Positions 1,827-63,542 of a DNA stretch of 64,000 bases are shown in pieces. Made by a program: the position numbers and the translations under genes. Numbering within the stretch: position 1 is the stretch's first letter; each line of letters starts with the position of its first letter. This stretch comes from an uncultured Enterobacteriaceae bacterium (GTDB lineage Bacteria > Pseudomonadota > Gammaproteobacteria > Burkholderiales > SG8-39), in the NCBI GenBank assembly GCA_964651335.1, contig CAZYVT010000014.1:365-64364 (forward strand), in the 5' to 3' direction. The notes below the pieces were generated by a model. It worked only from the letters and a program-made list of their open reading frames with translations. It made no database searches and was not told the DNA's origin.

Positions 1827-3005
1827 ATGAACACCACCCGGTTCTACGCCGAGCTCCCGGTTTTCACCGATTTTCGCGAGGTAATCCGCCCGGAGAGCTT
1901 CGCACCGCTCCCGGACGACTGGCACGTCGTGATGTCGGACGTGCGCAATTCCACCATCGCAATCCAGTCCGGCAGCTACAAGAACGTCAACACGCTCGGC
2001 GCCGCGACCATCACGGCGGTGCTCAACGCCGCGGGCGCGACCGACATTCCCTTTGTCTTCGAAGGCGACGGGTCGATGCTGTGCGTGCCCCCGGAGCTGC
2101 TCGACGACGCGCGCGCAGCGCTGCTGCATACGCAGGATTTGGCGCGCAAGTCGTTCGATCTGGATCTGCGCATCGCGACGCTCGGCGTGAGAAGCATCCA
2201 CGAGGCGGGCGCCAAAATCCTGGTCGCTCGTTACAGGGCGTCCGAGAATTACATCCAGGCCGTGTTCGCGGGCGGCGGGATGGAGTATGCCGACCGCTAT
2301 ATGAAGGATCCCGCCACCGCGCCGCTCTGCGCGGTGGAGCCGGGCAACATTGCCCCGCGCGGCAGCTTCGAGGGCCTGGAATGCCGCTGGCAGGACATCC
2401 CGAGCCGCCACGGTGAAACCGTCAGCGTGATGGTTCGGGCGCTCGCCCGGGACGCCGACGCGGCCTCGATCGTTTATCGCGAAGTCATCGCAAAGGTGCG
2501 CGAGATCTACGGCGCCGACGATGCCTGCCATCCCGTCTTCCCGCCCAACCTTGCGATTACCCTCAACAGTCGCCAGCTGGGCCACGAGGTCGGTGTTCGC
2601 GCAATGAGCAAGGGTCGCATCGGCAAATGGCTCTACCTGATGAAGACGCGCTTCTGGGTGCTGATCGGCTGGTACTTCATGCGCTTTGGCATACGCACCG
2701 GAAAGACCGACTGGGGCGGCTACAAGACCACGCTGGCGCGCAATGCCGACGTGAAAAAGTTTAAAGACGGTTTCCGGCAGATCCTGTCGGGTACCGCCGC
2801 GCAGCGCGAGGCGCTCACGGCATGGCTGGACGAGCGCTTCGCGCGCCGCGAGCTCGTGTACGGAGCGCACGTCACGAACCGCGCCCACATGACCTGCCTG
2901 GTGTTCGATTATTCGGGACGCCACCTGCATTTCATCGACGGCGCCGACGGCGGCCTGTTCCTCGCCGCCAAGGCGCTCAAGCAGCGCGTTTCAACGCTCG
3001 CCTGA
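1827..3005 (+). CDS. DUF3095-like protein (nucleotide-cyclase-like fold suspected)
   Basis: 392-aa ORF with high GC3. The N-terminus FYAELPVFTDF..LPDDWHVVMSDVRNSTIAIQSGSYKNVN matches my memory of the DUF3095 family. The antisense ORF 1470..2930 is rejected as a shadow. Confidence 0.55.
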   Translation: MNTTRFYAELPVFTDFREVIRPESFAPLPDDWHVVMSDVRNSTIAIQSGSYKNVNTLGAATITAVLNAAGATDIPFVFEGDGSMLCVPPELLDDARAALLHTQDLARKSFDLDLRIATLGVRSIHEAGAKILVARYRASENYIQAVFAGGGMEYADRYMKDPATAPLCAVEPGNIAPRGSFEGLECRWQDIPSRHGETVSVMVRALARDADAASIVYREVIAKVREIYGADDACHPVFPPNLAITLNSRQLGHEVGVRAMSKGRIGKWLYLMKTRFWVLIGWYFMRFGIRTGKTDWGGYKTTLARNADVKKFKDGFRQILSGTAAQREALTAWLDERFARRELVYGAHVTNRAHMTCLVFDYSGRHLHFIDGADGGLFLAAKALKQRVSTLA

Positions 3006-3045
3006 AGAGGGAAGATTCTCGGAGCGCCACATCCGCTCGCCGATC

Positions 3046-6000
3046 CTACCCTAGAATCACGCTCACCCGGTGGGTTCCACCATCATCGACGAGCGGAACG
3101 CGCACCGGGCCCTCCGGCAGCGCCTTGCCGTCCAGCTCGGCCCAACTGACTCCACGACTGACGCCGCGAGGGTTCTCGACCGCGATCTCGTAGCGTGCAG
3201 AGCGAAATCTGAAGACGATCTCGAACCCGGGCCACGCCTTGGGGATGCAGGGGGCGAGGAGCAGGAACGCTCCCTCTCGACGAACCCCGAGGATCGCTTC
3301 GATGCCGGCCCGGTACAGCCACCCGGCAGAGCCGGTATACCAGGTCCAGCCGCCGCGCCCCAGGTGCGGAGCAACCGAATAGACATCGGCGGCGACGGCG
3401 TAGGGCTCGACCTTGTAGCGCTGCACGTCTGCTCGCGTGCTCGTGCGGTTGATCGGATTCAGGAGCGAGAACAGGCGAGCGGCCTTGTCTCCCTGCCCGA
3501 GCGCGGCGAAGGCGATCACCGACCACGCGGCGGCATGGGTGTATTGGCCGCCGTTTTCCCGGATGCCGGGCGGGTAGCCCTTGATGTATCCGGGATCGAG
3601 CGGCGTGCGATCGAAGGGCGGCGCGAAGAGCAACGCCAGACCCTCGTCGCCGCGAATGAGCTGCTCGTCCACGGCGGCCATGGCGCGCAGGGCACGCGCT
3701 GGATCGGCCGCCCCGGAGAGTACGCTCCAGGATTGCGCGATCGAGTCGATCCGGCATTCATCGCTCGTGTAGGAGCCGAGCGGCGTTCCGTCGTCGTAAT
3801 AGCCGCGCCGGTACCATTCGCCGTCCCAACCGTCTCGCTCGAGCGAGGTTTGCAGCCGAGCCGCGTGCGAGCGCCACTTCGCGGCGTGCGCCTCTTCACC
3901 CCGAGCGCTCGCCAAAGGCGCGAACGCGGAAAGCGTCGCGTGCAGGAACCAGCCGAGCCAGACGCTCTCGCCTTTGCCCCGCTCGCCGACCCGGTTCATG
4001 CCGTCGTTCCAGTCGCCCGTGCCGATCAGCGGCAAGCCGTGTTCGCCGACGCCGAGGCTCTCATCGAGCCCGCGCGCGCAGTGCTCGAAGAGGGACGCGG
4101 TCTCGTCCGCGGGCACAGGCTGGAAGTACGAATCGTGTTCCCCGGGCCGTAACGCCTGGCCTTCGAGGAACGGAACTGGCTCGTCCAGCACTGCGAGGTC
4201 GCCGGTCGTCTCGACATAGTGTGCGGCGGCGTAGGCGAGCCAGATCCGATCGTCTGTAATGCCCGTGCGCACGCCCTGGCCGGAAGGCGGCAGCCACCAG
4301 TGCTGGACATCGCCTTCGACGAATTGCCGCGCGGCGGCTCGCAGGAGATGCGCGCGCGTCATCTCCGGTCGCGACAGCGCGAGCGCCGTTCCGTCTTGGA
4401 GCTGGTCGCGGAAACCGTAACCGCCGCTCGCCTGGTAGAACGCCGATCGCGCCCACAGGCGGCAGGCGAGCGTCTGATAGAGCATCCAGCGATTGAGCAT
4501 GATGTCCATCGACCGGTCCGGCGTTTTCACCTGGAGCGTGCCGAGCAGATCGTCCCAATACGCAACGACTTCGCGCAGGACCGCATCGAGATCGGCTGCC
4601 CGGTAGCGGGCGATCAGGGATTGCGCATCGGCCGCTGTAGCTGCCTCGCCGAGGAAGAAAACGATTTCCACTGTGCCGTCCGGTTCGAGATCGACCGGGG
4701 TTTGCAGAGCGCAGCAGGGATCGAGGCCGGCGCCGACCCGCTGCAAGAGGGGCGTTTCCCCTGCCAGCGCGGCCGGGTTGTCGAGCGCGCCATTGCGCCC
4801 AAGGAACTCCCGCCGGTCGCCGGTCCAGGCGCTCTGCCGACCGCCCAGATCCGCAAAGGCGACACGGGAACCGAACGTCATGTTCCAGGGGTTGCGCGCG
4901 AACATCGCGCCGGTCTCCGGATCGATCTCGGTCACGACCGAGAATGCAGACGCACCGCGCGAGGGCCCGAGTACCCACTCGACATAGGCCGTGACCGAAA
5001 GCCGCCGCGGTCGCTCTGACGTGTTGCGGATCGTCAGCCGCGAGATCTTGATCGGATCATCGAGCGGCACGTATTGGAGAAGATCGAGCGCGACACCGTG
5101 TGCGGCGTGCTCGAACCGGCTGTATCCCTGGCCGTGCCGTGCGATATAGGGCGCAGCTTCGTCACGGATCGGAGACGCCGTGGGCCCCCACAGCTCGCCG
5201 GACTCCTCGTCGCGCAGATAGAGGACCTCGCCCGGCCGATCGGTCACGGGGTCGTTCGACCAGGGCGTGAGCTGGTTCTCGCGACTGCCGAGCGACCATG
5301 TGTAGCCGCTACCCTCGACCGCCACTTGAAAGCCGAACGAGGGGTTGGCGATAACATTGATCCACGGGGCCGGGATCGACCGCCCGGCGCCGAGGATCGT
5401 CACATACTCCCGTCCGTCCGCGGCGAACCCGCCGAGCCCATTGAAGAATTCGAGGTTCGGCGGCGCCGGAACGGTCTGCGGCACGTCCGCGGGCGGCACG
5501 CGCCTCGGCGGCAGCGCGGCGGCGGTGTCCGCTTCCTCGAGACGGTTGAGCTGTTCGGAGAGCGTTCCGCGTCGTCCGGCATGCACCGCCCGGGCCATCG
5601 AGAGAAGCAGGGCGCGTGTCTCCGCCGAAATGAGATCTGCACGCAGCACGAACACCGAGCCGCGCGCGACGTCGGCTCCGATCTGCGGTCTGGATTGGCT
5701 CGTCCGGGCGAGTGTCTCCAGGGCGATCTGAAGGTCCTGGATATACGAGGATGCCCTTTCGTTCAGGATCACGAGATCGACGGCGAGCTGCTTCATCCGC
5801 CAGTATTCATGGGCTCGCAGCAACTGGCGGACGATGGCGATGTCCTCGATGTTGTCGATCCGCACCAGAACGATCGGGAGGTCGCCGGAAATGCGCTGCG
5901 CCCACAGCGCTGTCGGCCCGCCGCCGCCGCGGCGTATGGCGTCGGACGACGGACGCATCGACGGATCGGCGTAGAGCACGGCGCCCGCGAGACGCTGAAA

Positions 6001-58557: not shown

Positions 58558-59502
58558 ATGGCAAAGGGCAGGATGCACGACCCCATTCACCTGGAATATC
58601 GCAGCGCGCCCTCCGCGATCGCCTTCATGGCGCGGGCGATCCTCATCCCGGCGCGGTTCCGGCCGGGCGACCGCCTTTCGCCGCTTACCGCAACTTGGCG
58701 TGGTCATCGCGTCGCGGGCGCCGCGCTCGATTCATTTCTCGCGCTCACCGGCCTCGCCGACAATCCGCGCTGGGCGCTCCTTTATCCGCACGTCGCCGGT
58801 TTTCGGCTGCAGATGACGGTGCTCACGCATCCCGCGTTCCCATTTCCGATCTGGGGCGCGTTGCAGATCCGCAATCACCTGGTGCTCCATCGGCCATTTG
58901 CGCGTGGTGACGTTCTCGACATGCACACGCGTGTCGAGGCGCAGCGCGCGCTGGACAAGGGCACCGAGGTCGATCTGCACAGCTCGGCGCGTGTCGAAGG
59001 CGAGCTGGTCTGGGAAAGCCTCAACACGTTCTATTACCGGAGCCGCCAGGGTGCTCGGGACGCTGCGTCCCCTTTATCTGCTGCGCCAAAGGTCGAGGGC
59101 CCGATCGCGGCGCGCTGGGTCGCGCCCGTGGCTGCGAGATTGCGTTTCGGCAAGCTGACCGGGGACTACAACGGCATCCACCTGTCGCGCTGGTACGCGC
59201 GCCTATTCGGCTTCCGGGGCGCCTTCCTGCATCCGCAGCGCGTGCTCGGGCAGTGCCTTGCTCGTCTGCCGCGGCCGGACGGCGCGACGCCGCTTCGCCT
59301 CGATGCGTGGCTGAAGGGACCCGTGTACTACGGCTCGGAACTCGCGCTGCGCGTCGCCGAAACACTCGATGCGGTGACTTTCGCGCTGCAAGTCGACAGG
59401 GACGAGCGACCGGCAATCGTGGGTCGCGTTCTGGTGGAGCGCACGACTTCGCCGATTGCACCTCCGACCATTACATCGCCGATCTTGACGCCACCCGCGT
59501 AA
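58558..59502 (+). CDS. MaoC-like (R)-hydratase / double hot-dog fold protein; native C-terminus possibly replaced
   Basis: FGKLTGDYNGIHLSRWYARLFGF resembles the MaoC hydratase motif (GDxNPIH). The last ~20 codons run antisense into a truncated oxidoreductase gene. Confidence 0.6.
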   Translation: MAKGRMHDPIHLEYRSAPSAIAFMARAILIPARFRPGDRLSPLTATWRGHRVAGAALDSFLALTGLADNPRWALLYPHVAGFRLQMTVLTHPAFPFPIWGALQIRNHLVLHRPFARGDVLDMHTRVEAQRALDKGTEVDLHSSARVEGELVWESLNTFYYRSRQGARDAASPLSAAPKVEGPIAARWVAPVAARLRFGKLTGDYNGIHLSRWYARLFGFRGAFLHPQRVLGQCLARLPRPDGATPLRLDAWLKGPVYYGSELALRVAETLDAVTFALQVDRDERPAIVGRVLVERTTSPIAPPTITSPILTPPA

Positions 59503-59681
59503 TTCTTCTGCGGGCTGATGCGTGCGCGCATGTAGGGCGCAACATCAAGATAGATCGCGCGTACCAGCATCTCGCCATGCCCCGGATCCGGAACGGGGCC
59601 TTCCGAGAGCGCCCAGTTTTCTTCTTGCGGCATGCCTTCCGGATACGAAGCCAGCCGCCATTGCCGATTGCTGTTGCGCAT
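59436..59681 (-). pseudogene. N-terminal fragment (~82 aa) of an NADP-dependent oxidoreductase (YncB/CurA/PTGR1-like MDR)
   Basis: MRNSNRQWRLASYPEGMPQEENWALSEGPVPDPGHGEMLVRAIYLDVAPYMRARISPQKNYAGGVKIGDVMVGGAIGEVVRS is collinear with the N-terminal domain of this family. The Rossmann domain is absent, and the ORF then reads antisense through the MaoC-like gene. Confidence 0.6.
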
Positions 59682-59789
59682 GCGCGATCCGTCCGCTTGT
59701 TCTGAGATGCGGATTAACGAAGGAGTTGAGCGGCGAGCGGCCAAAGCGCGTAGCGCGACGGCCGCACTCTCGTTCGCTCCAACGCGTTG

Positions 59790-60452
59790 TCAGGCCGACA
59801 TGCCTTTGCGCCTGAACTCTTCATCGATTGTCCTGTGAACAACGGCAAGCACACTGTCAATTGATTGGTCGAGCAATTCGAGGCTCTTCGGCGAGATATC
59901 CCAGCTCATATCGGAATGAACGTATTTGCCCTCGGAAAACCCGGCATAGATTCGATGAGGCCCGGCATTTGGATCACTCCGGACCTCTTTTACACGATCT
60001 TCATTTCGCTGCCCAGGAAGCCGATCGTGAAAATGCTCAAAGCTGTTACGACCCGCGACGTAGTGTTCAAAGTGCTTTCGATGAGCGTCGAAGACCTTTT
60101 TTGCTTCGAGAAACTCAGTTTGTCCGACCAGGATTTCCAGCATATTTCTGCAGTTTCCCCATGCAACAAAATAGAAATGAACTTCGTAGAGCACCGGTCG
60201 CATTCGCAACATCCCATCTCGCACATACGCGCGCATTTCCACCTGGGACGCTCCGGGCTTTGGCTCTGGAAACAACGACTTCGAGCCAGCTATTGCCTCC
60301 GCAATTCGGGCCATTTGCCTATGTGCTGCCGCACGATGTAGCTCGAGCCGGCTGTAAGCAAAGGTTGCGGCATTTCCATTTGCAACAACGAAGAACAACT
60401 TCTCTCCGTGCGTCATGGACGCCCAATACTCTCGCGCCGCGTTGGTAGTCAT
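59790..60452 (-). CDS. Hypothetical protein, low-GC cassette-like gene (220 aa) with Rx4H motifs (possible HEPN-like)
   Basis: Start at MTTNAAREYW (ATG 60452). GC is visibly lower than the surroundings. The sequence is helical and contains ...DAHRKHFEHYVAGRNSFEHFHDR... with RKHFEH and RNSFEH both fitting Rx4H. No other family signal. Confidence 0.5.
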   Translation of the reverse strand: MTTNAAREYWASMTHGEKLFFVVANGNAATFAYSRLELHRAAAHRQMARIAEAIAGSKSLFPEPKPGASQVEMRAYVRDGMLRMRPVLYEVHFYFVAWGNCRNMLEILVGQTEFLEAKKVFDAHRKHFEHYVAGRNSFEHFHDRLPGQRNEDRVKEVRSDPNAGPHRIYAGFSEGKYVHSDMSWDISPKSLELLDQSIDSVLAVVHRTIDEEFRRKGMSA

Positions 60453-60461
60453 GCGGCCTAT

Positions 60462-60513
60462 CGTGCCGTTAACCCGCGGGCCGCTCGCGGCCCGTCGGCG
60501 TTGAACGGATTGG
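60462..60513 (-). repeat. attC-like imperfect hairpin element, copy 1
   Basis: Minus strand: ccaatcc GTTCAAC gccgac GGGCCGC ga GCGGCCC gcgg GTTAAC ggcacg. It lies 29 nt after the stop of gene 60543..61445, and its paired part ends 13 nt before the ATG of gene 59790..60452. Confidence 0.6.
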
Positions 60514-60542
60514 ACCGCCACAATGAATCAGGTCGCCCGGCA

Positions 60543-61445
60543 TTACAGCGGAAAGGTGGTCGAGTGACTGAACGGAAACTTAGCCTTCACAAACTCGACC
60601 ATCACAGCGCCGATCTTCTTCCCGAGTTTCTTTGAAGGCGACTCGACCATCTCCCCACAGGCGGTATCGAGAAATTCCCACTTGTCTTTCCATGGTGCGG
60701 AAAAATGAACCCCAGGAGGCTGGATGAGCGGGAGGAGTCGTAAGGCCATCCAGCTGATCTCAGCGAAACGGTTCATAAACATGGCGAACGCCTGCTCTCT
60801 AAAAGTCGGGAGAGCCGGTAGCGGCGATTGGCCCCTGAGCCACTCCTGTGAGGCGGCGAGAGACAGGCGAGCTCCATGGACCTCGTAATCGAACATCGCG
60901 TCCCACAGCGCCAGTTCATCAATAGTCGCCTGAGTTAGACCGCTTTGATTTCCCATCATTTGGTTCTTGACAGAAAACTCCGTCTTCTTCCTAAGCTTTC
61001 TCGCGCTGTCTGCATCAAATGGCTTTCCCGGTTCGATTCCTTCGATGGCGTAATAGTCTGTCAGCTTCTGAAGTGCGGCAGAGACGAGGGTTAAGTTGTC
61101 AAAGGTATTACGAAGAATTGTGTACGCTTGATAGGGGTAACCGTAAATCGCAAGCCGTTCGGAACCAAACAGCGACTGGAAATTATGGACAAGGCGAGGA
61201 AGAAAAAGCCCATAGAACTCAGAAAGCGGAGTGGTCACCTTCGGACGGCACTCGGTATTCATGAGTTCAACCGTTTCAAGATAGAAGCACTTGAGTGCAT
61301 CCGATAGAGCGAGGTAGCCCTGAAATCTAAGAACTGCCTGGCTGTGTTTCTGTTCTTCGTCGAAGAGCAAGTGTGCGCGCCCATACGCAACGCCCTTGTA
61401 TTCGGATATTTCTCCCAGCCGCCGGATCATTTCTTCTGGAGTCAT
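60543..61445 (-). CDS. Hypothetical protein, low-GC cassette-like gene (300 aa)
   Basis: Clean 300-aa ORF at roughly 50% GC by eye against a much richer background. All-helical composition. No motif I can assign (ILRNTFDNL is only a degenerate RN motif). Confidence 0.55.
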   Translation of the reverse strand: MTPEEMIRRLGEISEYKGVAYGRAHLLFDEEQKHSQAVLRFQGYLALSDALKCFYLETVELMNTECRPKVTTPLSEFYGLFLPRLVHNFQSLFGSERLAIYGYPYQAYTILRNTFDNLTLVSAALQKLTDYYAIEGIEPGKPFDADSARKLRKKTEFSVKNQMMGNQSGLTQATIDELALWDAMFDYEVHGARLSLAASQEWLRGQSPLPALPTFREQAFAMFMNRFAEISWMALRLLPLIQPPGVHFSAPWKDKWEFLDTACGEMVESPSKKLGKKIGAVMVEFVKAKFPFSHSTTFPL

Positions 61446-61472
61446 AGATCCGTGGTCTTAGTGGAGGCCCAC

Positions 61473-61527
61473 CGTGCCGTTAAACCGCGGGCCGCACGCG
61501 ACCCGTTGGTGTTTAACAGATGGTTGG
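61473..61527 (-). repeat. attC-like imperfect hairpin element, copy 2
   Basis: Minus strand: GCCCAAC catct GTTAAAC accaac GGGTCGC gt GCGGCCC gcg GTTTAAC ggcacg gtgggcc. It starts 5 nt after the lipoprotein gene stop and lies about 31 nt before the ATG at 61445. It shares ~80% identity with copy 1, with stem-preserving changes. Confidence 0.6.
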
Positions 61528-61532
61528 GCAGC

Positions 61533-61937
61533 TTATTTGGCGGCGACACAATTTTGGACGACGAAGGCACATTGCTCGCCTTCAGCGACTAGGCCGCCTG
61601 TACGGCCTGCGTAGTTGACCTTTTCGACGCGTCCACTGCGCAAGATAAAGCTAACCTCGCAATAGCGACGTTGGACCGTCGCCACTCCGCCTCCGGCAGT
61701 CGATGCCGCGCCACCGCCCGCAACTATGCTGTCACCGCCACCGACATACGTCATAACTTCCGTGTCACCAGAAGAAGCGGTTCGCACGGGAGCGCCGGCA
61801 CATGACAAAAGCGCTGCCTTGGACATGCCAACAAGCTCGATCTGAGCACGCTTCGCGGTCTCGGCGCGTTGTTGAGCTGCGCACCCCGATAGTACGGCGA
61901 TCAAGAGCACCAGAAGCGCGGCATTTTTCGTGTGCAT
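61533..61937 (-). CDS. Hypothetical lipoprotein
   Basis: Lipobox ALLVLLIAVLSGCAA, a Gly/Ala-rich centre, and two Cys pairs. No family recognised. Confidence 0.6.
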   Translation of the reverse strand: MHTKNAALLVLLIAVLSGCAAQQRAETAKRAQIELVGMSKAALLSCAGAPVRTASSGDTEVMTYVGGGDSIVAGGGAASTAGGGVATVQRRYCEVSFILRSGRVEKVNYAGRTGGLVAEGEQCAFVVQNCVAAK

Positions 61938-62131
61938 GCGTTTCCCCCTTTGCGCGTATCAAGCGGCGCAACTATTGAATGAGCAGCTCGCGGGCCATGC
62001 TAGGACGATCCACCCGTAGATGCAACGATCCACGGAGAGATCGAACAATATTCGGGCAGATATCTACCGGCAGATCTCACAGCCGCGACGCGCAGGTCGG
62101 ATGGTGCGGTCCAGCGCGGCTCATCCCGCTT

Positions 62132-62341
62132 CTACACCTTCTTCGCGGAATATTCCTCGGCAATCTTGTCGTCGAAAAACGCGCTCGGGTTGGGCGCGTT
62201 CATGAAGCGGCGATACACCTCGGGGTAGACCTTCGAGTACTGAAACACCTGGCGGTTCGTCATTTCGACTTCCAGCACCATGCTCTTTTCGTCGTAGCCG
62301 ATCGAGCGGATCTTCGACGAGTTGACACGCTTTCTTTCCAT
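62132..62341 (-). CDS. KTSC domain protein
   Basis: VNSSKIRSIGYDEKSMVLEVEMTNRQVFQYSKVYPEVYRRFMNAPNPSAFF matches the KTSC (PF13619) pattern. The start overlaps the upstream stop (TGATG). Confidence 0.8.
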   Translation of the reverse strand: MERKRVNSSKIRSIGYDEKSMVLEVEMTNRQVFQYSKVYPEVYRRFMNAPNPSAFFDDKIAEEYSAKKV

Positions 62342-62712
62342 CAGGCGGCCTCGACGCGGACCCGGTCGCCGCTATTCACTTTGGCGAGCACCTGCGCATC
62401 ACCCACCACCCGCCCAAGCACATTGCAGCGCGAGACGAGCTTGGGCTTGCCGTCTTTGCCCGAGATCGGGGTGCGTCCGTAGGGCAGGGCAAGGGAGGAT
62501 CCCTCGACCCAGAAACAAACGGCGCCGGGTTCCACGGTCTGGCGCGCGTCGGGCTCGAGGTCAGCGCTCAACGGCGCCTCGAAATACACCTCTTCGCCCC
62601 AGGTCCGAGCCACCGACTCGAATGGCAGCACTTCGATGAGCGCCTTCGCGGTGGGAGTTTCGTCGAGGGCTACGACGAAAGAGGTTTCTCCCGCTTTGAT
62701 TCTGAGTTTCAC
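62341..62712 (-). CDS. Cyclophilin-like fold protein (PF18050-like)
   Basis: VKLRIKAGETSFVVALDETPTAKALIEVLPFESVARTWGEEVYFEAP...EPGAVCFW is typical of the family. The GTG at 62712 overlaps the TGA of the upstream methyltransferase (GTGA). Confidence 0.75.
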   Translation of the reverse strand: MKLRIKAGETSFVVALDETPTAKALIEVLPFESVARTWGEEVYFEAPLSADLEPDARQTVEPGAVCFWVEGSSLALPYGRTPISGKDGKPKLVSRCNVLGRVVGDAQVLAKVNSGDRVRVEAA

Positions 62713-63542
62713 TTGCCCGGCGATGCGCTCCAAGGCGACTTCGCTCCTCCTGCTTCCACCACGCCTTCTATGAGATTGCCCTTCACGGTACCGGAGAAGT
62801 GGCCGCTGCGCCCGGCAAGCTTGAAGCTGAGCTGGTCGCCCTTCAGCCGCACGTCTTCGAGCGGGATGTCCTTGCCATCAAGCCGCGCGGATCCCGAGAC
62901 CTTGGTCACCTGCTGCCTCAGATCCAGCCGCACCGGCCCCTTGTTCACGCTCGCCGGCACGTTGGCGCTCCACTTTCCCGCGACTTTCGCCGGGACGACG
63001 TACAGATAGATCAGCGTCGTCGTGACCCCGCTGATCGCAACCTTGTCCTCGAGGTCCATCTGGACGTATTTCTCCGGAATCCACCCGGCGAGCGGATAGT
63101 CGTGCGAGAGGACTCGCGTGCCGGGCTTCAGCTCGGCCAGCAGCTTGTCCTTCAGCATGTTCACGGTGTTGGGAAGCAGGTACATCGTCAACACCGTCGC
63201 CTGCGAGATGTCGGTCTTGAACAGGTCCTGCGTGATGAACTTGACGCGGTCGGCAAGACCTTCCTTCCGCGCTGCCTCGTTCGAGAGCTTGACCAGCTTG
63301 TCCTGGATCTCGACGCCGAAGCCGCGCGCGCCGAACACCTTGGCCGCGGTGAGGACGATGCGCCCGTCGCCGGAGCCGAGATCGATGACGAAGTCGCCGG
63401 CGCCGACTTCCGCGAGCTTGAGCATGTCGGCGACAACGCTTTGCGGCGAGGGCACGTAGGGACCGGCGTTGACCGCCTTTTCTTCAGCCAGGACGGACGT
63501 GGCGACGAATGACGCAATCAGGAGAGCGGAGAGAATTTTCAT
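62709..63542 (-). CDS. Class I SAM-dependent methyltransferase with N-terminal signal peptide/anchor and C-terminal beta-rich domain
   Basis: MKILSALLIASFVATSVLAEE signal-like N-terminus. PYVPSPQSVVADMLKLA...VIDLGSGDGRIVLTAAK (motif I). The ATG at 63542 lies 4 nt after the recJ stop. Confidence 0.75.
   Translation of the reverse strand: MKILSALLIASFVATSVLAEEKAVNAGPYVPSPQSVVADMLKLAEVGAGDFVIDLGSGDGRIVLTAAKVFGARGFGVEIQDKLVKLSNEAARKEGLADRVKFITQDLFKTDISQATVLTMYLLPNTVNMLKDKLLAELKPGTRVLSHDYPLAGWIPEKYVQMDLEDKVAISGVTTTLIYLYVVPAKVAGKWSANVPASVNKGPVRLDLRQQVTKVSGSARLDGKDIPLEDVRLKGDQLSFKLAGRSGHFSGTVKGNLIEGVVEAGGAKSPWSASPGK

Follow-up and report, generated by a model that had tools for sequence, protein, structure and literature searches.

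The question raised by this locus is whether two similar hairpin-forming repeats on either side of a gene of low G+C content are integron attC sites, and whether the genes next to them form a cassette array without an integrase, as an earlier note made from the sequence alone had proposed. The locus lies in a 64,000-nt stretch of contig CAZYVT010000014.1 (assembly GCA_964651335.1, an uncultured Enterobacteriaceae bacterium), referred to throughout as the window. The analysis supports this reading: with a probability of about 0.9, the minus strand from 59428 to 62084 carries a partly fossilised integron gene-cassette array of the kind known as clusters of attC sites lacking an integrase (CALINs). 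CALINs are common and have been well described. The published definition asks for two or more attC sites on the same strand, no further than 4 kb apart, in a place where neither an intI gene nor an intI pseudogene lies nearby (Cury et al. 2016, PMC4889954), and the window array falls within it, since three attC sites are found on the minus strand, 1011 and 744 nt apart. It is not a complete integron, there being no intI gene in the 64 kb and no promoter-like site in 59300–62800. Along the minus strand, the array consists of a non-attC junction, cassettes A, B and C, and a truncated oxidoreductase cassette; the two repeats are named attC_B (copy 1) and attC_A (copy 2), and the third site attC_C (Table 1).

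A repeat search of the window returned the two repeats as a direct-repeat family of 56 nt with two members (60455–60510 and 61466–61521), which share 84% identity without gaps at a spacing of 1011 nt. A degenerate 44-nt pattern made from both copies matches at these two places only, even with three mismatches allowed, and matches none of 100 shuffled sequences. Much of what the earlier note had read from the letters held when rechecked, namely the similarity of the two elements, their distances from the adjoining stop and start codons, the nested stems with the bulged C of copy 1 (seen in the sequence and on folding), and the low G+C content of the unit, which is 0.48–0.58 across 59700–62300 against ~0.65 in the surroundings. 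As G+C-rich imperfect palindromes lying directly after stop codons, the copies could also be repetitive extragenic palindromes (REP) or bacterial interspersed mosaic elements (BIME), or rho-independent terminator hairpins that merely resemble attC. There is next to no likelihood of this, given that only two copies occur in 64 kb, both within the low-G+C insert, that no T-run follows either copy and a terminator scan reports neither, and that Rfam has no match in 59000–62600. The relatives found elsewhere, in 12 distant taxa, sit in cassette arrays, with RYYYAAC/GTTRRRY boxes, a break in homology at the crossover point and, in two loci, an integron integrase alongside.

These relatives came from a scan of 185,579 species, each represented by one genome, with a pattern in which nothing but the two outer boxes of the repeat and a few flanking bases was specified. 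Twelve loci were found, compared with ~1 chance match expected for 20 specified bases, and they span Burkholderiales, Methylomonas, Sulfuricaulis, Anaerolineaceae, Saccharibacteria, Solirubrobacterales and others. In all 12, GCCCAAC (GTTCAAC in one) stands 5 nt before the element, and a GTT that leads into purine-rich bases (GTTRRRY) stands 5 nt after it; loci with a common upstream flank diverge immediately after the GTT. The signature of an integron cassette junction is an R'' box of the form RYYYAAC and an R' box of the form G↓TTRRRY, where the arrow marks the crossover after the G. Because boxes of these two forms flank the relatives' elements and divergence follows the GTT, the outer boxes GTTCAAC/GTTAAC singled out in the earlier note, though real, are the L'' and L' boxes of a 63-nt attC and not its R boxes. 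The true R' boxes lie 5 nt downstream (GGTGGGC in copy 2, GATAGGC in copy 1); for copy 2, the note had R'' (GCCCAAC) right and R' (as GTGGGCC) one base out of register.

Each hairpin is also found 10–30 nt upstream of a start codon, where a conserved 5' leader or regulatory structure of the downstream gene might stand. Such a structure is scarcely credible here, as the element travels with the upstream gene. A common 5' flank plus attC precedes unrelated sequences in three loci (L002, L004 and L010), and the downstream sequence differs at every locus directly after GTT, as would not be expected of a conserved 5' untranslated region. Furthermore, attC_B is followed by cassette C in the window and by other DNA in another array (L112), and homologues of cassette C lie behind attC sites of other types or behind non-attC DNA.

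Eleven of the sites align without gaps, with the AAC and GTT triplets invariant in 11/11. The structure fitted to them runs from the R box through a 5-nt bubble, a bulged L box and a bulged middle helix to a 7-bp inner stem. In this fit 90.5% of the alignment cells are paired, compared with 27–40% when the partner is slid, and one inner-stem pair is compensatory (column 27/40, with C-G in six of the sequences but G-C in the other five). R1, a covariance model trained on the 11 sites (all from other genomes, the window copies being left out), detects attC_B with 73 bits (E 6.4e-19) and attC_A with 61.1 bits (E 2.6e-15; 140 kb searched). Canonical family members score 76–96 bits under R1, and nothing in the rest of the window exceeds 16 bits. 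The model also detects further attC sites of other lengths, in the same orientation, within the family loci, and in plasmid R100 it picks out the classical aadA1 attC with both ends correctly placed (34.4 bits, E 8e-9), so the likeness to an aadA-type attC that the earlier note had pointed to proved to be genuine. A blastn search of both copies against 72,556 plasmids returned partial matches at chance level only.

In the aadA1/aadA7 attC (59-base element) of class 1 integrons, the module order is the same as in the 63-nt family and the L boxes are nearly the same. The R100 aadA1 site reads GTCTAAC AATTC GTTCAAG CCGAC GCCGC..GCGGC GCGGCTTAAC TCAAGC GTTAGAT, and the family consensus reads GCCCAAC CATCC GTTCAAC GCCGAC GGGCCGC..GCGGCCC GCGGGTTAAC GGCAC GTTRRRY. 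In both, the folded bottom strand has single-base bulges in its 3' arm. The family differs from aadA1 in its length (63 nt, not 60), its longer, G+C-rich inner stem and its three bulges instead of two, and the window copies differ further in the lesions of their R' and R'' boxes and in serving cassettes that encode unknown proteins and not resistance genes. Cassettes of CALINs are likewise not homologous to resistance cassettes (Cury et al. 2016, PMC4889954).

The surroundings of the family members elsewhere are those of integrons, with arrays of other attC types in the same orientation. At L008, an open reading frame (ORF) 196 nt from the family attC is recognised as an integron integrase by the NCBIfam model TIGR02249, with 457 bits where 265 are required. 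L010 has the textbook layout, in which an intI-like gene is followed by an attI (with two direct repeats) and then by cassettes that each begin with six bases complementary to their own R''. The intI-like gene of L010 (4390–5071) matches IntI1 in two pieces (residues 1–73 and 168–331; 1–58 and 154–314 of the L008 IntI); in one frame, only its first ~75 residues match integron-integrase models, and it may be a pseudogene or an assembly error. At L008, ~25 nt upstream of the first attC (1120–1150) are the reverse complement of the sequence after a later attC (2517–2550), a complementarity that extends well past the R boxes and could reflect a permuted or repeated cassette beside the integrase.

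The earlier note's count of two elements was too low, as a third attC of another sequence type (attC_C) had been overlooked. It is invisible to the narrow family model R1, and was found by an architecture scan. A general attC model had been tried and was set aside for this rule-based scan, as the MAFFT alignment of 15 attC sites of differing lengths misplaced the L' boxes. The rules ask for at least 6/7 matches in both R boxes, a 5-nt spacer after R'', an L'' that pairs 3+1+3 with a 6-base L', and a 5–7-nt spacer before R'. The scan recovers most attC sites in integron loci, and gives ~3 false positives per 100 kb of strand (calibrated on 839 kb of strand of related non-integron DNA); a looser version was too unspecific. 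From this background, the chance of a hit at the spot and in the orientation of attC_C is p ~0.003. The modules of the site are GCCTGAC-AACGC-GTTgGAG...CTCAAC-TCCTTC-GTTAATC, the R'' holding the stop codon of the 220-aa gene, and a canonical homologue at L120, beside a 79%-identical gene, reads GCCTAAC-AACGC-GTTCGAG...CTCAAC-GCGAAC-GTTAGGG.

Table 1. Coordinates of the attC sites, cassettes and flanking features of the array (window positions).
Feature	Position	Strand	Details
attC_A (copy 2)	61467–61529	minus	63 nt; R'' GCCCAAC intact (7/7); R' GGTGGGC (GTT to GGT); R1 61.1 bits
attC_B (copy 1)	60456–60515	minus	60 nt; L boxes, inner stem and three bottom-strand bulges intact; R' GATAGGC (GTT to GAT)
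attC_C	59712–59795	minus	84 nt; other sequence type; architecture scan and homology to L120 attC
Non-attC junction region (attI-like or secondary site)	61972–62084	minus	Ends ...TTCATTCAATAG↓TT (...CAATAG↓TT); crossover G at 61972
Cassette A	61473–61971	minus	Starts TTGCGC (ancestral TTGGGC); lipoprotein-like ORF 61533–61937, 134 aa; ends at the G of attC_A
Cassette B	60462–61472	minus	Starts GTGGGC (ancestral TTGGGC); ORF 60543–61445, 300 aa, all-alpha
Cassette C	59718–60461	minus	Starts ATAGGC (ancestral TTAGGC), then cgcATG; ORF 59790–60452, 220 aa
Truncated fourth unit	59428–59717	minus	Starts TTAATC; first ~84 codons (59429–59680) of a CurA/YncB-type NADPH oxidoreductase
Decayed second copy of HtdX/MaoC-like 3' end	62085–62131	minus	Directly after KTSC stop; left insert edge against empty-site L045
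Host HtdX/MaoC-like dehydratase gene	58558–59427	plus	Right flank, convergent with the array; PDB HtdX match, E 2e-21

An attC site acts as a folded single strand, the bottom strand, in which the integrase binds the R and L boxes and cleaves between the C and the AA, corresponding to G↓TT on the top strand, with the extrahelical bases setting the choice of strand. Recombination of attC with attC excises a cassette as a circle, and recombination of attC with attI inserts it. In this array the folded strand, the putative substrate of IntI, would be the plus strand of the window. The GTT of R' is present in 12/12 distinct canonical family members, the only exceptions being attC_A (GGT, in the window and in L112) and attC_B (GAT). 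None of the window sites keeps its triplets intact: attC_A has GGT, attC_B has GAT together with a loss from R'', and attC_C has GAC. Judged by homology to canonical sister copies, the window sites are decayed members of attC families.

The decay goes beyond the triplets. The earlier note had taken the differences in copy 2 to preserve pairing; they instead depart from the family consensus, remove the extrahelical base of L'' and weaken the middle helix, and the canonical fold of attC_A is no longer that of minimum energy (z -1.0, compared with -4.4 for a canonical family member and -4.9 for aadA1). In attC_B, R'' has undergone a 3-nt deletion and a C-to-T change (GGCCCAACCATCC to GGTCCAATCC). 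Its L boxes are GTT[C]AAC and GTTAAC, and the bottom-strand fold, formed by the window plus strand, retains the bulges T, C and G and has no R-box helix; the sister copy in L112 keeps the canonical form throughout and agrees with the family consensus at every position (0 mismatches). In attC_C, R'' and R' each match at 6/7 positions, R'' having changed from AAC to GAC, and the L boxes are GTT[G]GAG and CTCAAC. As each attC has a lesion in an invariant AAC or GTT triplet, the array is predicted to be largely immobile.

The limits of the cassettes can be set at G↓TT by comparison with other arrays. A cassette's first six bases complement its own R'' (TTGGGC with GCCCAAC, TTAGGC with GCCTAAC). 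Cassettes A and B are found together in a further array (L112–L119), with 95.4% nucleotide identity over 1.5 kb; there an attC precedes the pair. The homology between the window and L112 begins exactly at the G of GTTGCGC at 61972, where the sister reads GTTGGGC. Cassette B also has a homologue in Candidatus Nitrotoga arctica (L014), in a cassette bounded by G↓TTGGGC and an attC with GCCCAAC. Cassette C starts at G↓ATAGGCcgcATG, and its homologues start at G↓TTAGGCcgcATG (L125), G↓TTAAGCcgcATG (L120) and G↓TTAGGC (L020) and end in a homologous canonical attC. The fourth unit matches positions 1–79 of 108 in the Pfam profile ADH_N_2 and 1–80 of 336 in the NCBIfam curcumin reductase model before ending abruptly at 59428, the junction with host DNA; the empty-site relatives L045 and L046 lack this fragment.

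The GGT lesion of attC_A also occurs in L112–L119, where the site bears a different 3-nt deletion in R''. Since this lesion is common to the window and to a 95%-identical A-B pair elsewhere, cassettes A and B appear to travel as one fused cassette. The A/B junction would have stopped working before the pair spread; A-B would then have moved as a single cassette bounded by TTGGGC and the GCCCAAC of attC_B, with the internal attC_A decaying independently in each lineage. Fused two-gene cassettes that arise through loss of the internal attC are described for mobile resistance integrons, and the pair resembles these in being found together in two arrays, with the same GGT lesion in the attC between them and independent decay since. 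The inactivating step here appears to be a single change at a crossover base, as the internal attC is nearly full-length, unlike the deleted one of those fused cassettes. The L112 array that bears A-B is interrupted (2820–4818) by a Y2 transposase gene of the IS91 family with a tyrosine recombinase next to it; the recombinase was considered as an integron integrase and rejected (168 bits, below the cut-off of 265).

The integrase reported absent by the earlier note is indeed absent from the window: with IntI1 and the L008 IntI as tblastn queries, no integron integrase or remnant was found in the 64 kb (best E 0.046 and 0.28). The window covers only 1.9 kb on the recJ side of the array, and the same flanks are found in relatives without IntI. 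The array would have arrived by the action of an integrase in trans, or of one since lost. Its behaviour is most likely that of ordinary chromosomal genes, since the recombination machinery is missing and the sites are damaged. The genes look promoterless, with neither a sigma-70-like promoter nor a convincing terminator detected by scans of 59300–62800. As the scans found neither ahead of the cassettes, read-through from the operon of the methyltransferase, cyclophilin-like and KTSC genes would be the likeliest source of transcripts.

An array that is still active would need an integrase elsewhere in the genome or on a mobile element, with CAATAG↓TT as an attI-like landing site and the triplet changes tolerated. 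In its favour, mobilisation in trans is considered possible for the cassettes of CALINs (Cury et al. 2016, PMC4889954), genomic sites of the form 5'-GWT-3' are used by integrases for cassette insertion, with cleavage after the G (Richard et al., bioRxiv 10.1101/2022.09.11.507474), two of the R boxes (R' of attC_C and R'' of attC_A) are undamaged, and at L031 a junction shared up to GTT leads into a different first cassette. Against it, GGT is not GWT, and the GGT site went unused while A-B moved as a unit between two arrays; attC_B, having lost three R'' bases, can form no R-box helix; and the content of cassettes is invariant in five metagenome contigs from different samples, in addition to there being no integrase in the 64 kb. 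On balance, continued activity is improbable.

Several points weigh against the reading of the locus as a partly fossilised CALIN. Model R1 is family-specific, and because the pattern that retrieved its training sites had been written from the window copies, its match to the core is partly circular; the R boxes, the locus context and the match to aadA1 are evidence independent of that circularity. The GAT of attC_B might still be cleaved, given that integrases tolerate GWT at secondary genomic sites. An integrase may be encoded elsewhere in the genome, outside the 64 kb. Lastly, cassette turnover at the locus is documented by the single relative L031, as one strain-level population (the five contigs) was sampled.

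Homologues of the cassette proteins (261 for A, 251 for B and 123 for C) come from Proteobacteria, Nitrospirota, Acidobacteria, Chloroflexi and other phyla, nearly all unnamed and on short contigs. Proteins of the cassette B family have 300–302 aa and form >250 clusters in several phyla, as a common cassette protein. No Pfam, NCBIfam or PADLOC family matches A, B or C. AlphaFold (AF2) predicts all-alpha or mostly alpha folds for B and C with confidence scores (predicted local distance difference test, pLDDT) of 91.5 and 90, and neither predicted fold has a significant neighbour in the PDB. The cassette C family has an invariant R135-N-S-F-E139-H140 motif (RNxxEH / RNxxxH) in a long helical bundle, reminiscent of HEPN RNases. 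Kinship of C to HEPN_AbiV was considered and dropped, the profile comparison with a HEPN_AbiV neighbour being negative and the PDB fold search empty; B proved unrelated to C and to the 307-aa neighbour of a C homologue.

Related arrays elsewhere show these genes in other company. At L027, the first cassette after attI holds two genes, for a 160-aa protein and a lipoprotein homologue 86% identical to that of cassette A. This cassette ends in a 63-nt family attC with a spacer of 3 nt, not 5 nt, before R', and the attI has the direct repeats CCAGGTTAGACATC and CCAGGTTATACGTC (330–1440). Another apparently integrase-less array lies downstream of hflX at L020 (6001–9200; also L021–L023), with genes for a C homologue, a 307-aa unknown protein, HEPN_AbiV, a 2'-5' RNA ligase-like protein, a HAD hydrolase and an acetyltransferase; one attC of this array also has an altered crossover triplet (GCTAGGC).

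The 2.66-kb insert (59428–62084) separates the KTSC gene from the convergent HtdX-like gene. In blastn comparison with the empty-site relative L045, the left-hand homology runs as far as 62085 and the right-hand homology takes up again at 59427, with a 29-nt overlap of the two segments in L045, where the KTSC stop is 24 nt from the HtdX-like stop; in L046, homology likewise resumes at 59427. The conserved C-terminus of the HtdX-like protein (...RPAIVGR) ends at 59427 in the window, L045 and L046. The window ORF reads on to 59502, ~25 codons past IVGR and antisense to the truncated oxidoreductase, as a lineage-specific C-terminal tail; the tails of L045 and L046 are different and short. The ~47 nt after the KTSC stop (62085–62131) resemble the last HtdX-like codons (..DERPAIVGR), of which the intact copy is at 59399–59427. 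With a decayed and an intact HtdX-like 3' end at opposite ends, a duplication of 29–47 nt flanks the insert. Integrase recombination does not give rise to such a duplication.

Among 80 related loci retrieved by the cyclophilin-like protein, ~40 were long enough to show gene order, and the conserved order is recJ, (methyltransferase), cyclophilin-like, KTSC, (HtdX-like, reversed, in few loci), prfB and lysS. Neither cassettes nor IntI were found in these ~40 syntenic relatives. On one side or the other of KTSC, towards the cyclophilin-like gene or towards prfB, 2.1–2.6 kb of extra DNA is present in L065 (1415–3551), L082 (517–3108) and L083 (2644–4959), and the block from recJ to lysS appears to be a recurrent insertion hotspot. 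The array-bearing 4–6 kb is 99.7–100% identical in the five metagenome contigs mentioned above, and no strain variants were available, as exact look-ups of the KTSC and lipoprotein proteins gave the same arrangement only. The hypothetical empty site, with the left flank joined to TTAATCCGCATC, had no exact match in the metagenome collection.

Nothing essential distinguishes the window array from CALINs in general, apart from the defined non-attC junction at its upstream end and the damage to every attC. Neither R1 nor the architecture scan finds an R''/palindrome architecture in the junction region, which contains a 9-nt direct repeat, GTGGATCGT, twice, 21 nt apart. Cassette A starts at the same G↓TT here as behind the attC that stands before it in L112. 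In L031, the closest informative relative, the sequence that follows KTSC is shared with the window for 160 nt, as far as ...TTCATTCAATAGTT, beyond which TTAGGC and an HNH-like gene take the place of cassette A. Because L031 differs directly after the shared spacer, the upstream end is a non-attC site that joins different cassettes at one G↓TT, and recombination would have taken place at this exact point since the lineages split. The 113-nt region may have come with the array, as it is absent from L045. The junction appears to behave like an attI or a secondary (attG-type) site, and any of the origins proposed for CALINs, namely intI loss, rearrangement and secondary-site insertion (Cury et al. 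2016, PMC4889954), may apply to the array.

Both kinds of site have points of likeness. As in attG insertion, a cassette is joined to non-att DNA at G↓TT, outside an integron platform and in ordinary chromosomal DNA; unlike attG insertion, the 113 nt before the junction are absent from L045, and the HtdX-like duplication flanks the insert. As in the attI sites of L010 (AGGTTATCCGTC twice, then ...TTAA and GTTAGGT) and L027 (CCAGGTTA.AC.TC twice, then ...TTAC and GTTGGGC), GTT is the point at which the first cassette joins, and there are two direct repeats, which in those sites lie 30–70 nt upstream of the crossover. Unlike those sites, the window junction has no adjacent intI and no sequence similarity to them, and its repeat GTGGATCGT has no GTTA core. 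The junction spacer shows no similarity to the attI regions of L008 and L010; nor, on comparison, is it what remains of the 160-aa gene found ahead of the lipoprotein gene at L027. A special constraint on the spacer was also discarded, the spacer being 92.5% identical to L031 and the adjacent KTSC gene 93.8%. KTSC and spacer together are 93–94% identical to L031 (61972–62733), and the adjacent cyclophilin-like gene only 79.5%, a pattern that suggests a possible recombination tract including the landing site.

The array is an ordinary new instance of a well-known kind, and leaves models of integrons unchanged. It offers a nucleotide-resolved example of how a cassette array fossilises without a nearby integrase, through changes in crossover triplets, the welding of cassettes and the truncation of the last cassette, and it illustrates that attC sites can be spotted from a reading of raw sequence alone. 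Its useful yield is the 63-nt attC family, which is widespread and akin to the aadA type, three families of cassette proteins with a wide distribution (134, 300 and 220 aa), two of them with confident predicted folds that have no match in the PDB, and a candidate orphan landing site. This last is the only part that could be new, and is a modestly novel lead. Tentatively, and with the balance of likelihood still against it, the 113-nt region may be such a site, either an attI with no integrase gene beside it or a natural hotspot of the attG kind, used repeatedly by an integrase acting in trans. If so, two related lineages would have been given different first cassettes at one nucleotide inside a block of housekeeping genes, and the locus would be a naturally occurring case of an integron platform that has come apart from its integrase.

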